Shown here: one piece after another, positions 32,905-35,524 of the stretch
Layout of the letters: the number at the start of each line of letters is the position of its first letter
Position numbering within the stretch: the stretch's first letter is position 1
Source: an uncultured Actinomycetota bacterium
GTDB taxonomy: Bacteria > Actinomycetota > Actinomycetes > JAFAQI01
Assembly: GCA_963835405.1 (NCBI GenBank)
Contig: CAWIFV010000010.1
Span: forward strand, 15,150 to 79,149
Reading direction: 5' to 3'
Length of the DNA: 64,000 bases
The notes under the pieces: generated by a model
Told to the model about the DNA's origin: nothing
The model's input: only the letters and a program-made list of their open reading frames with translations
Database searches by the model: none
Made by a program: the position numbers and the translations under genes

Positions 32905-34466
32905 GCCCTGGCGGGCACCGCGGCGTCGACGTCGTCTCCCTCGACGAGCGCCTGCTCTACCTGCGGGTGCTCCGCGCCGTCATCGCGGCGGCCACCGTCC
33001 TCGACGCGGCGTTGCTGCCCGGGTCGCTGCACAAGCCGTTCGCGGTCGTCGGCGCCTTCGCACTCGGCTACCTGGTGCTGAGCCTGGCGGCCGAGGCCGT
33101 GTGGCGGATGATGCGCCGGCGCGGGCTCTGGCTGTTCGGCTCGCTGCTCATGATCGACGGCATCTACCTCGCGTGGGCGTCGTACCTGACCGGCGGCAGC
33201 GGCGGGCCGCTGCGCTACCTGATCCTCGTGCACCTCGGCGCGGTGACGCTGTTGGCGTCGTACCGGACGGGCATCAAGCTCGCGCTGTGGCACTCGCTGC
33301 TCCAGCTGTGCGTCTTCTACGCGGAACGGGCGAAGATCCTCGACCAGCCGGCGTCGATGAGCTCGGAGTGGTACCGCATCCTCGCCTTCATCGTCGCGCT
33401 GTGGACCCTGACCCTCACGATCTCCTCGCTGGCCGCGGTCAACGAGCGCGAGCTGCGCCGCCGCCGCTACGAGCTGGAGCAGCTCGCCCAGATGGGCCGA
33501 TCGCTCGAGGACGCCAACGACCCGTTGAGCGTCGGCGACGTCCTCCTCGACACGCTCACCGAGACCTTCGGGTTCCGGCGGATGGCGCTGTTCGAGGTGG
33601 TCGACGACGCGAACCCGCGGCTGCTGACCTGCCGCAACCTCGTCGACGCCGTCGTCAACGACTTCACCCTCGGTGCGGGCTCGGTCCTCGCGACCGCGCA
33701 CGAGACCCGGGAGACGCTGCTGGTCCGCGACCTGGACCCGGACGTCGACCCGTGGCTGACCGCGATCATGCCGGACGCGCACAACGTCATCGTCGTCCCG
33801 CTCGTCGCCGACGCGGTCGTCGGCGTGCTGGTGGCGGAGACCGCCGGCGTCTCCCGCGACCGTATCGAGCGCCGGGTCGTCGGGACGACGGAGCGGTTCG
33901 CCGGGCACGCGGCGCTGTCGGTCCGCAACGCCAACCTGCTCGAGCGGATGCAGCAGATGGCCGTGACCGACGGTCTGACCGAGCTGGCCAACCGCCGCTC
34001 GTTCGACCGGTCGCTGGAGCGTGAGCTCACCCGCGCCACCCGGACCGACGGTCGGCTGTCGGTGGTCCTGCTGGACATCGACCACTTCAAGGTGCTCAAC
34101 GACACCCACGGGCACGTGGTCGGCGACCAGGTGCTGCGCGACGTCGCCGCGGCGCTGCGCAGCTGCGGTCGCGAGTACGACACCATCGCGCGCTACGGCG
34201 GCGAGGAGTTCGCCGCGGTGCTGCCGGGCTGCTCGTCGGCGCTCGCGCTGCAGGTCGCCGAGCGGCTCCGGGAGGCCGTCGAGCAGTGCGGCGCCGAGGT
34301 GCCGGTGACCGCGAGCGCGGGGGTCGCAACCTTCCCCTACGACGGGATCGACGCGAAGTCGCTGCTGCAGGCCGCGGACGAGGCGCTGTACGCCGGCAAG
34401 CACGCCGGGCGAAACGCGGTCCGGTCCGCCGAGCAGGCGCGAGCGGTCACGGCGCTCTCGTCCTAG
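32901..34466 (+). CDS. membrane-bound GAF-GGDEF diguanylate cyclase
   Basis: ORF 32901..34466 has about 5-6 N-terminal TM helices, a GAF-like middle region and a GGDEF domain with an intact active site RYGGEEF. An RxxD I-site (REYD) lies 5 residues upstream of the active site. Confidence 0.9.
   Translation: MSPGGHRGVDVVSLDERLLYLRVLRAVIAAATVLDAALLPGSLHKPFAVVGAFALGYLVLSLAAEAVWRMMRRRGLWLFGSLLMIDGIYLAWASYLTGGSGGPLRYLILVHLGAVTLLASYRTGIKLALWHSLLQLCVFYAERAKILDQPASMSSEWYRILAFIVALWTLTLTISSLAAVNERELRRRRYELEQLAQMGRSLEDANDPLSVGDVLLDTLTETFGFRRMALFEVVDDANPRLLTCRNLVDAVVNDFTLGAGSVLATAHETRETLLVRDLDPDVDPWLTAIMPDAHNVIVVPLVADAVVGVLVAETAGVSRDRIERRVVGTTERFAGHAALSVRNANLLERMQQMAVTDGLTELANRRSFDRSLERELTRATRTDGRLSVVLLDIDHFKVLNDTHGHVVGDQVLRDVAAALRSCGREYDTIARYGGEEFAAVLPGCSSALALQVAERLREAVEQCGAEVPVTASAGVATFPYDGIDAKSLLQAADEALYAGKHAGRNAVRSAEQARAVTALSS
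34433..34462 (+). repeat. direct repeat A, copy 1 (last 10 codons of the cyclase gene)
   Basis: gcaggcgcgagcggtcacggcgctctcgtc is identical to 35473-35502. Imperfect similarity continues for about 20 nt. Confidence 0.9.
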
Positions 34467-35395
34467 GTGTTGCTCGGCCCCAACGGTCGCATCGCGAACG
34501 CGAGAAGTGTCACCGCGTCGAAGGGGACCGGAGCGTTCGCCGCGTAGCCCGCGACGTAGTCGGCGGGAACGGGATGGTCGAAGCCCTCACCGGCAACGAC
34601 TTGTCGCGGGCCACTGGGCCCGCCGGACTCGTAGGTCGTACCGACGTAGCTGAGGTTGTTGTCACTTCCGCAGCTCACCCCGCCGTTCTTCGAAGCGGAG
34701 GGGCACGCATCTGCGGTGGTGGCGTCCAGCTCGGAGGGGGACGACGTCCAGTCGATGGCCACCGCGGTCGAGACGAGTGGCTTTCTGCCGAGCCGGTCAG
34801 GCATCGAGCCGAGCGCTGCGCCGCTCGCGGGTCCCAGCAGCGAGACCGGCGTCGATGAGGCATTCGCGGGGAACGGGGCGTGGCGCACCTTGACGATGTC
34901 CATCGGGAAGGGCATGCGCACTGTCGTTGAGCGATCTGTGGCGACCAGGACGGTGTAGCGGCGGCCGGGTTTCAACTGCATGAACCTGAAGTCGTAGCCG
35001 AAGGGCAGTATGGCCGGCCATCCGCGGGTTGATCCCGGGTCGGGCATCAGTGCCCAACCCTGGCGGAGCCGCGGAAAGTAGAAAGCCAGGTACCGGCTTG
35101 CCCTGCGCGGGAGCTCGCTCTGAAACGGCAGCGCCCAGGTCGTGCGCGGGACCGTGAAGACGACCCGGCTTCGGCGGGGCAGGGCCACCTGGGGGCCTGC
35201 CCCGCTCGATGGTGTCGTCGACGACGCGGTGTCCAGCGTCACTGCCTGCGAGCCCGGAGCGGACCCCTGTGTCCACGAACGCTCGACGGTGCGGCTGCCC
35301 GGGCCAGCTGATGGCGGGGTCGCGAACGTCGGCGCCGCGAGAACGAGCGCGCCGAACAGCGAGAGGGCGCACACTGGCCCTCGACGCCGAGCCAC
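34463..35395 (-). CDS. hypothetical secreted protein
   Basis: ORF 34463..35581. The likely start is GTG 35395, giving the signal peptide VARRRGPVCALSLFGALVLAAPTFA. Third positions are visibly more A/T-rich than in neighbouring genes. The stop overlaps the cyclase stop in the palindrome CCTAGG (34462-34467). No domain recognised. Confidence 0.55.
   Translation of the reverse strand: MARRRGPVCALSLFGALVLAAPTFATPPSAGPGSRTVERSWTQGSAPGSQAVTLDTASSTTPSSGAGPQVALPRRSRVVFTVPRTTWALPFQSELPRRASRYLAFYFPRLRQGWALMPDPGSTRGWPAILPFGYDFRFMQLKPGRRYTVLVATDRSTTVRMPFPMDIVKVRHAPFPANASSTPVSLLGPASGAALGSMPDRLGRKPLVSTAVAIDWTSSPSELDATTADACPSASKNGGVSCGSDNNLSYVGTTYESGGPSGPRQVVAGEGFDHPVPADYVAGYAANAPVPFDAVTLLAFAMRPLGPSNT
34530..34557 (+). 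repeat. direct repeat B, copy 1
   Basis: ggagcgttcgccgcgtagcccgcgacgt is identical to 39387-39414. It extends with 2-3 mismatches over about 11 more nt. Confidence 0.9.
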
Positions 35396-35472
35396 CCCTG
35401 TCTGCACGGCATCTCCAATTCGCGCGCGACGACCCGACTCCTGCCAGCGGCTCTCATCTCTCGCAGAGCGGG

Positions 35473-35502
35473 GCAGGCGCGAGCGGTCACGGCGCTCTCG
35501 TC
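35473..35502 (+). repeat. direct repeat A, copy 2 (relic of the cyclase gene 3' end)
   Basis: Identical 30-mer that would still read QARAVTALSS-stop in frame. Followed by the palindrome at 35509-35524. Confidence 0.9.
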
Positions 35503-35508
35503 GTAGGC

Positions 35509-35524
35509 GTTGAGGCGCCTCAAC
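35509..35524. terminator. perfect 16-nt palindrome GTTGAGGCGCCTCAAC, possible ancestral terminator hairpin of the cyclase gene
   Basis: Read directly. It lies 3 nt after the relic stop codon of repeat A copy 2. The equivalent position after copy 1 is degenerate (gttgctcggccccaac). No U-tract is present. Confidence 0.3.

Follow-up and report, generated by a model that had tools for sequence, protein, structure and literature searches.

A perfect 30-bp direct repeat that copies the 3′ end of a diguanylate cyclase gene is best explained, if tentatively, as the scar of a duplication and an illegitimate recombination in a hotspot, with no attachment site involved. The locus, a highly variable part of the genome of a soil actinobacterium, was probably shaped by ordinary rearrangement and not by a new mobile element. 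A second repeat pair, which simple insertion of the gene between the 30-bp copies (here called INS) leaves unexplained, points to a cyclase/INS junction that, judging from sequence comparison, may have been duplicated and later split. All coordinates refer to the window, the whole 64-kb stretch of DNA that was analysed.

Two Interleaved Repeat Pairs

The 30-mer GCAGGCGCGAGCGGTCACGGCGCTCTCGTC is present in exactly two copies in the window, at 34433-34462 (R1a) and 35473-35502 (R1b). The copies are direct and identical at 30 of 30 positions, as the earlier note on this DNA had stated; no third copy exists in the window with up to three mismatches allowed (0 expected in shuffles). R1a, on the plus strand, is native and forms the last part of the coding sequence for the cyclase, and the QARAV part of its tail is common to the cyclase orthologues of relatives. 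R1b, also on the plus strand, is out of context in non-coding DNA and is found as well in a second public contig (L011). Translation confirms that both copies read QARAVTALSS-stop, so that the cyclase 3′ end is restored; the last codons differ (TCC vs TCG). The abrupt left edge of the similarity was likewise described correctly (leftward extension score, 1).

To the right of R1 the similarity continues imperfectly, with 15 of 22 positions identical between 34463-34484 and 35503-35524 (P ~6e-4 for random 22-mer pairs; 2.6e-3 for the extension score). Beside R1b, on the plus strand, the segment 35503-35524 comprises a stop codon and the 16-nt palindrome GTTGAGGCGCCTCAAC (35509-35524), which is perfect, as had been claimed, and also unique in the window. 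Sequence comparison identifies 34463-34484, beside R1a, as its diverged counterpart (hp′), to which no strand is assigned. The earlier account of hp′ as a degenerate palindrome that forms the end of the opposite gene holds: its minus strand encodes the last six codons of INS (LGPSNT) and the stop. The sequence CCTAGG at 34461-34466 contains the stop codons of both the cyclase gene and INS, again as described. Within hp′, positions 34471-34478 are complementary to 34428-34435. The hairpins were rejected as unusually stable structures: they fold no better than shuffled sequences, with z-scores that are not significant.

Once riboswitch paralogues and genes with internal repeats are set aside, the window has just two pairs of exact repeats of at least 25 nt, R1 (30 nt) and a second pair, R2 (28 nt), and both lie in the stretch discussed here. 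The R2 pair (34525-34568 / 39382-39425) was overlooked in the earlier note. R2a (34525-34568, plus strand) is native inside INS and encodes the family-conserved motif PADYVAGYAANAPV (YVAGYAANAP in the INS family); R2b (39382-39425, plus strand) is an out-of-context, isolated fragment of the INS C-terminal coding region. The R2 copies share 28 bp exactly and 44 bp at 91% (40/44). Both pairs are direct and they are interleaved in the order R1a-R2a-R1b-R2b. Each has one copy in its native coding context (R1a, R2a) and an isolated fragment as partner (R1b, R2b). In the native copy R1 and R2 are 92 bp apart, and both recur downstream with order and orientation kept.

Divergence is distributed unevenly along these segments, with 0/30 differences in R1, 7/22 in the hairpin part and 4/44 in R2; at the pooled rate of 11/96, all 30 positions would stay unchanged with a probability of ~0.026. 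A motif common to R1 and R2, GAGCGNTCNCNGCG, is present only in the four repeat copies and was dismissed as chance, the similarity being no better than that of random pairs (P = 0.21).

The Cyclase Gene and INS

The cyclase gene (32901-34466, plus strand) encodes a protein of 521 aa with a membrane N-terminal part and a GGDEF domain (Pfam E 2.9e-46), and its last 10 codons lie in R1a. Its orthologues share 69-86% aa identity. The earlier note had reported a single secreted-protein gene between the repeats, on the minus strand, with lower third-position GC and no accompanying integrase, and all of this stands. INS (34463-35395, minus strand; 310 aa, or 314 aa from an alternative GTG start at 35407) is the only gene in the 1,010 bp that separate the repeats, and its GC3 is 0.82 vs 0.975 for the cyclase gene. 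The INS reading frame encodes a secreted protein with an all-beta fold, from an orphan family in which two cysteines are invariant. It has no match in Pfam, NCBIfam or PHROGs. A first AlphaFold2 model was poor (pLDDT 48.5) and a second, from 26 sequences, reached pLDDT 82; Foldseek comparison of the model with the PDB gave no match at E ≤ 0.001 (best TM-score, 0.25).

The region upstream of INS (35396-35472, minus strand) carries a short motif (GCAGGAGT ... CGAA ... GGA) that is common to the upstream regions of four INS homologues; this region therefore travelled with INS. Family homology extends from the upstream motif to codon P304 (34484-34486); INS is therefore complete and native up to the cyclase stop region. 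A conserved small open reading frame was not found upstream of the INS homologues, and the proposed original neighbourhood is thus unsupported. Four homologue loci (L012, L013, L028, L029) lie in unrelated contexts with no flanking repeats and no cyclase neighbour, and the idea of INS as a recurrent repeat-flanked cassette was rejected. The exact INS protein occurs on two contigs only, which are near-identical here and probably come from the same organism; the exact cyclase protein occurs on one contig only.

The Lineage-Specific Stretch

A lineage-specific stretch of 5.4 kb (34467-39865, no strand assigned) runs from the cyclase stop to the tad/cpaF promoter region and is missing in the closest relative. 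Apart from INS, it holds an adhesin gene and a small open reading frame of 59 aa. An aptamer of the c-di-GMP-II riboswitch (GAG variant) lies upstream of the adhesin gene at 35703-35804 on the plus strand (Rfam RF03169, 51.8 bits). Two further RF03169 matches are found at 46342-46444 (62.4 bits) and 48419-48517 (60.3 bits), and all three riboswitches exceed the gathering score of 40. The neighbourhood thus comprises a diguanylate cyclase gene, three c-di-GMP-II riboswitches before genes for surface or secreted proteins, and a tad pilus locus.

The adhesin gene (35829-39404, plus strand) encodes a sortase-anchored surface protein (LPXTG adhesin) with SpaA-like prealbumin, DUF7507 and DUF11 repeats; its C terminus has an LPFTG motif, a membrane helix and an RRRR tail. 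The last six codons and the stop lie inside R2b. In the source assembly the gene is broken into three frames, and the frame breaks differ in L011. No terminal inverted or direct repeats beyond chance were found at the ends of the adhesin block. The 59-aa open reading frame (39469-39648, minus strand), also part of the lineage-specific stretch, has a signal-peptide-like N terminus and no confident family, its weak NCBIfam match (E 0.0049) being far below the cut-off.

Relatives and a Second Assembly

In the closest relative (L030, 86% aa identity), the cyclase gene is followed by 220 bp and then cpaF. In 18 relatives kynA comes after the cyclase gene, with or without other genes, and one locus (L006) has a 9.9-kb interval without a kynA match. 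This intergenic interval, bounded by the cyclase gene and the tad pilus locus, is a hotspot whose gene content differs widely among relatives. A cyclase orthologue reaches its 3′ end at 22 loci, 19 of which have at least 300 bp downstream of the stop; duplication of the cyclase 3′ end is seen in 0 of these 19. Scans of genome contigs, metagenome contigs and a set of 5.8 billion proteins, based on the cyclase, returned nothing closer than 86% aa. An empty site, with the cyclase gene leading directly into the hairpin, had been proposed in the earlier note as something to look for in relatives. It was not found in those downstream sequences that were read; with the closest relative at 86% aa, this is a weak test.

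The second public contig, L011, spans 34438-39805 and is base-for-base identical over 34438-36009. No sequencing run with this organism was found, and the runs listed contain only 5-6% of the words of a conserved stretch.

A Proposed Duplicated and Split Junction

In the proposed mechanism, the 136-bp cyclase/INS junction (34433-34568) would once have been present twice, and the 30-mer would be where its second copy starts on the left. That second copy would survive in two pieces, R1b with the hairpin (35473-35524) and R2b (39382-39425), a 3.86-kb block with the riboswitch and the LPXTG adhesin gene (35525-39381) having replaced 40 bp in the middle. The starting arrangement would have been the cyclase gene and INS tail to tail, their stop codons overlapping in CCTAGG. 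The junction would then have been duplicated, either by tandem duplication of the 1,040-bp unit 34433-35472 or, alternatively, by import of a sister strain's version of the locus, illegitimately joined. Finally, the adhesin block would have disrupted the second copy, and the remaining second copy of INS would have been lost. The repeat pairs, their order and orientation, the native copy of each and the lack of the whole stretch in relatives are observed; from them we infer the order and mechanism of these events.

Copying of one contiguous 136-bp segment explains both repeat pairs and their order at once, and the overall divergence of the two pieces is similar (7/52 for R1 plus hairpin, 4/44 for R2). 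The adhesin gene reads six codons into R2b, as expected if the block entered pre-existing INS-derived sequence. The completeness of INS, native as far as the cyclase stop region, also argues for duplication, as does the hotspot character of the interval. So do the failure to find a recombinase among the open reading frames scanned and the failure of the repeat and INS to recur in mobile-element collections. Against it, at least two or three separate events are needed, and they are undatable. A perfect 30 bp stands beside 7 differences in the next 22 bp, and to account for this unevenness one must suppose that the cyclase tail is under purifying selection or that the hairpin is under selection. 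The rest of the stretch shows no remnant of kynA, of the 40-bp middle piece or of another INS body, and the absence of the last two counts against duplication, as does the lack of support for the proposed original neighbourhood. No intermediate arrangement was seen either, and the collections searched contain no relative closer than the 86% one.

The locus resembles the scars of segmental (tandem) duplications in that two markers recur downstream in the same order and orientation, with a native copy and a fragment of each, at a variable intergenic site and with no dedicated recombinase needed. It differs from them in that the second copy has been cut to 52 + 44 bp, so that the duplication itself is no longer visible, the spacing of the markers is unequal, and the hairpin part has diverged much more than the rest.

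Alternative Explanations

Insertion of INS in one step is possible but rather doubtful. The locus would already have had the order cyclase-hairpin-riboswitch-adhesin, and INS would have entered between its hairpin and the cyclase stop region through illegitimate recombination, with 30-52 bp of the target duplicated; R2b would be an unrelated short templated patch. Possible routes are end joining, a replication template switch and homology-facilitated illegitimate recombination that used the cyclase gene as its anchor. None of these needs a recombinase, and the direct duplication does bracket a compositionally foreign gene. The duplication also reaches 52 bp, with INS family homology ending where the extension ends. 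One base change, G to C at 34463, would have supplied the INS stop and left the cyclase protein unaltered; without it INS would extend 42 codons antisense into the cyclase gene. However, R2b at the far end of the adhesin gene becomes a second unexplained rare event, and the empty site that such an insertion predicts was seen in no relative. Moreover, illegitimate recombination, end joining and template switching do not usually duplicate 30-52 bp of the target. As in homology-facilitated illegitimate recombination, a foreign gene adjoins a conserved gene that is a possible anchor, and the other junction is without homology. That process is described in naturally transformable bacteria and its typical products delete recipient DNA, whereas here 30-52 bp are duplicated; to our knowledge, natural transformation is undocumented for this uncultured lineage. 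Insertion of an IS or transposon would also leave a direct repeat of the target on both sides of the insert. Such target-site duplications are usually 2-14 bp, and this origin was rejected for a duplication of 30-52 bp with no inverted repeats at the insert ends and no transposase. An assembly artefact, for example two co-existing haplotypes of the locus placed in series or a bad contig join, is very unlikely. The assembly does contain indel errors, with secA and the adhesin gene split across frames, and the limited cover of L011 also leaves room for an artefact; as that contig includes only 25 bp of R1a and ends there, a single assembly shows the cyclase gene running on into INS. Yet the junctions of INS with R1a (25/30 bp), of the INS upstream region with R1b, of the adhesin gene with R2b and of R2b with the downstream sequence are identical in L011. 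INS is, in addition, a real gene with homologues, and an overlap of 30 bp would not suffice to misjoin long reads.

The earlier note had compared the repeats to attL and attR and had considered a mini-element, a reading that failed each test run (integrase, collections, homologues, empty site) and is weakened. CIMEs (cis-mobilizable elements) are decayed ICEs or IMEs in which attL and attR persist but the genes for integration and transfer are gone (Guedon et al. 2017, PMC5704250). Here, too, integrase-less cargo lies between direct repeats, and the repeat spans the 3′ end of a protein gene that stays intact; the locus has two repeats, which are putative att sites, and no genes for integration or transfer. 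It is nevertheless unlikely that the two 30-mers are the attL and attR of a CIME that integrated site-specifically at the cyclase 3′ end, brought a replacement end for that gene, subsequently shed its integrase and transfer genes and might still be moved in trans. In its favour, the perfect core ends exactly at the last codon and synonymous TCC/TCG codons leave the target intact; the flank outside the core is partly similar, as attP and attB arms can be; and the cargo has lower GC3 and lies in a variable stretch. A related case is that of e14 and phage 21 in E. coli, which integrate at the 3′ end of the protein gene icd and supply it with a replacement end. However, no recombinase of any kind, including integrase, and no relaxase or excisionase was found in the island or in the 20 other open reading frames of the window that were scanned. 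The element would be only 1,040 bp long, with one gene and as a single instance. The 30-mer has no match in IMG/VR, and INS (tblastn) has none in 50,697 phage and 72,556 plasmid records. In the relatives, no integrative element sits at the cyclase 3′ end and the site is unused; no related ICE or IME for it, and no cognate integrase-bearing element, was found. The INS homologues in their four unrelated contexts lack repeats, and the interleaved R2 pair is unexplained, a second repeat pair having no place in the CIME model. It is more improbable still that INS and the 30-bp repeats form a minimal integrase-less cassette, moved in trans by a recombinase encoded elsewhere. This would be a one-gene cis-mobilizable element that targets the cyclase 3′ end and brings its own replacement gene end.

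Implications

Were the locus a trans-mobilised cassette, protein genes in Actinobacteria would join the known targets of trans-mobilised mini-elements. Read as the scar of a duplicated and split junction, the locus would be an example of how short perfect direct repeats can mimic att sites through duplication and illegitimate recombination in a hotspot, and a caution for automated mobile-element calls. New surface-protein cargo would have been shuffled in among the cyclase gene, the riboswitch-led genes for surface and secreted proteins and the tad locus, which suggests an ongoing remodelling, in this lineage, of the adhesion repertoire that c-di-GMP controls.

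The 30-bp repeat and the gene it brackets

The diguanylate cyclase gene (GGDEF, 521 aa; 32901-34466; Pfam E 2.9e-46) ends in a 30-mer, GCAGGCGCGAGCGGTCACGGCGCTCTCGTC, that is found twice in the 64-kb window, at 34433-34462 (R1a) and 35473-35502 (R1b). Shuffled sequences give no copies by chance; further copies are absent from the window at up to 3 mismatches. R1a comprises the final 10 codons of the cyclase gene; R1b is non-coding, yet translates as QARAVTALSS-stop. Similarity between the copies breaks off abruptly on the left; on the right an imperfect match runs on for 22 bp, with 15/22 positions identical (P about 6e-4 to 3e-3). 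The two stop codons fall within this extension, as does, behind R1b, the perfect palindrome GTTGAGGCGCCTCAAC, found once in the window. An 8-bp perfect complement (GCCGAGCA / TGCTCGGC, 34428-34435 and 34471-34478) encloses both stop codons; it arises from altered bases of the degenerate hairpin after R1a and bases directly upstream of the 30-mer, and its fold is statistically no better than shuffles.

The only gene between the two copies, INS, lies on the minus strand at 34463..35395, or up to 35407 if translation starts at an upstream GTG with GGAG ahead of it, and its product carries a signal peptide. Third-position GC is 0.82 in INS vs 0.975 in the cyclase gene. The descriptive statements of the earlier note on the repeat and INS are all correct: a perfect direct repeat whose first copy is the cyclase 3' end, a second copy that keeps the reading to the stop, an abrupt left boundary, a perfect hairpin behind the second copy, and a single secreted-protein gene of lower third-position GC.

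The INS family is an orphan one and very small: its members are secreted, all-beta proteins of roughly 300 aa, and searches gave 6 matches in a 5.8-billion-protein set and 29 cluster representatives in 1.84 billion proteins. INS itself has no match in Pfam, NCBIfam, or PHROGs. AlphaFold2, given 26 sequences, yields a confident all-beta model (pLDDT 82) that has no structural counterpart in the PDB (best TM 0.25). Two cysteines, C231 and C242, are invariant in the family, and an upstream DNA motif (GCAGGAGT ... CGAA ... GGA) is common to five family loci. Family homology spans this short upstream motif through codon P304 at 34484-34486; the final six INS codons (LGPSNT-stop) fall in the stretch that corresponds to the hairpin but has diverged from it. 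A single G-to-C change at 34463, silent in the cyclase gene, makes the INS stop; with the second-copy sequence in that stretch, INS would extend 42 codons, antisense into the cyclase gene. One homologue, P0003 on locus L013, has an IS256-type (Transposase_mut) transposase fragment, at L013 1-486, roughly 3 kb away.

A second, interleaved repeat

In a census of exact repeats of at least 25 nt, all lie in internally repetitive genes or riboswitch paralogues of the window, except R1 and a second repeat, R2. This 28-mer (34530-34557 and 39387-39414) is the exact core of a 44-nt match of 91% identity (34525-34568 / 39382-39425). The first copy, R2a, encodes the conserved PADYVAGYAANAPV motif of the INS family and is therefore native in INS. 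R2b is an isolated fragment, with no more INS similarity on either side, that provides the last six codons and stop of an adhesin gene right behind an RRRR tail.

All R1 and R2 copies are in direct orientation, and the plus-strand order is R1a, 22 bp, 40 bp, R2a, INS body, R1b, hairpin, 3,857 bp containing a riboswitch and the adhesin gene, and R2b. The contiguous 136 bp at 34433-34568, the junction at which the cyclase and INS genes meet tail to tail, recur downstream as a split second copy whose middle 40 bp are replaced by the riboswitch-adhesin block. A motif seemingly common to R1 and R2 is not significant.

The interval in relatives

Scans with the cyclase protein recovered 23 orthologue loci (69-84% aa identity) from Frankiaceae/Mycobacteriales MAGs and soil or rhizosphere metagenomes, and an additional protein search found the closest orthologue, locus L030 (86% aa). 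The flanks of these relatives contain neither INS nor the downstream adhesin gene, and a duplicated cyclase 3' end is missing from all 19 whose sequence continues for 300 bp or more past the cyclase stop. In 18 loci the cyclase gene is directly followed by kynA (tryptophan 2,3-dioxygenase), which is absent from the window; where flanks are long enough, 0-6 kb of variable genes follow, and then a tad/cpaF pilus locus that aligns to the window from about 39944. In L030, cpaF begins 220 bp after the cyclase stop with no gene between, and homology to the window stops at 34441 and restarts at 39866. These interval contents (compared across L001-L009, L014-L026, and L030) indicate that the whole of 34467-39865 (5.4 kb) is lineage-specific and that the cyclase-tad/cpaF interval is a hypervariable hotspot.

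The interval holds 9.9 kb of other genes in L006. A 40-nt near-perfect palindrome directly after the cyclase stop in L005 (11557-11596) is probably a terminator; in the other relatives, neither the check for repeats nor the downstream sequences that were read gave anything like it. L030, which has none of the stretch, and L013 come from one metagenome (JGI sample 3300039444).

Origin of the repeats

A second public contig, L011 (ENA ERZ25039483 contig_6640, 5,376 bp), corresponds to window 34438-39805 and so nearly coincides with the lineage-specific stretch; on the R1a side it breaks off after 25 bp of the repeat. These limits might reflect co-occurring strains that have the flanking DNA, but not this stretch, in common. 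The 22 differences from the window are mostly single-base indels, all within 36010-38845. The window assembly does contain indel errors, which probably account, rather than pseudogene formation, for secA being split over two frames (10947-13409 / 13274-13921) and the adhesin gene (35829-39404) over three, and continuity from the cyclase body into R1a comes from a single assembly. However, INS is a real gene, both R2 copies are present in L011, and the two assemblies agree base for base at the novel junctions; that the repeat is an assembly artefact is very improbable.

The earlier note likened the 30-mers to attL/attR and suggested that the insert may be a decayed or trans-mobilised mini-element, or the product of an unusual cassette-like insertion. 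Decayed att sites, as in a cis-mobilizable element (CIME) in the sense of PMC5704250, would fit an identity block whose end coincides precisely with the final codon of a target gene that is still intact, and an outer flank that is only partly similar; a strain near enough to reveal a genuine empty site is also missing from the collections searched. Yet, as that note observed, the insert has no integrase: the remaining space in the stretch is too small for an integrase or transposase, and none was found among 20 other window ORFs scanned. The 30-mer is absent from IMG/VR and INS from 50,697 phage and 72,556 plasmid records, INS homologues occupy four different contexts without flanking repeats, and the cyclase 3' end carries no integration in any relative. 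Att sites are not favoured and seem distinctly doubtful. If INS had instead been inserted illegitimately in one step, between the cyclase gene and a hairpin already in place, duplicating a long piece of target, R1 would be accounted for, but R2b would be a further rare coincidence; this reading too is unlikely, if somewhat less so.

Our preferred reading, tentative and a little short of an even chance, is that R1 and R2 come from a copy of the cyclase/INS junction later split by the riboswitch-adhesin block. Such a copy would account for both repeat pairs, the order and direction in which they lie, and the comparable extent to which each pair as a whole has diverged (7/52 and 4/44). It could derive from tandem duplication of the 1,040-bp unit 34433-35472, or from illegitimate joining of the locus as it exists in a sister strain. 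INS would then be the older resident beside the cyclase gene, and the riboswitch-adhesin block a later arrival that disrupted the spare junction. This history would require two or three events, and no remnant of a second INS body survives. Because divergence is uneven (0/30 vs 7/22; pooled-rate P about 0.026), a junction copy would also need selection on the cyclase tail and the hairpin/INS stop region. Most likely, the repeat is a scar left by rearrangement in an intergenic hotspot of high variability rather than a mobile element of a new kind.

A putative c-di-GMP module around the repeat

Three plus-strand c-di-GMP-II riboswitches (GAG variant, RF03169; gathering score 40) lie at 35703-35804 (51.8 bits), 178 bp from the hairpin, at 46342-46444 (62.4 bits), with an orthologue in L005 at 19300-19404, and at 48419-48517 (60.3 bits). 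All sit shortly upstream of secreted or surface protein genes; downstream of the first is the adhesin gene, which encodes an LPXTG surface protein with SpaA-like and DUF7507/DUF11 repeats. A minus-strand 59-aa ORF follows it, spanned by a 21-nt inverted repeat (90% complementary; 39443-39463 / 39588-39608) with one arm just beyond the stop and the other within the signal-peptide codons. Tandem 21-nt repeats (GGCGGCGGCGACCAAGGTGCC) occur at 48953-49100, within the surface protein gene behind the third riboswitch. A tmRNA gene (54615-54974, 165 bits) and smpB (53176-53652) are about 1 kb apart, with smpB upstream, and downstream lies an ORF for a CsoR-like metal-sensitive repressor with a heavy-metal-associated domain; nothing integrase-like is seen there.

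The riboswitch set neighbours both the diguanylate cyclase gene and the tad pilus locus. Together, the cyclase gene, the three riboswitches, and the tad locus look like a compact c-di-GMP-controlled adhesion module, and this module is more interesting biology than the repeat that it surrounds.
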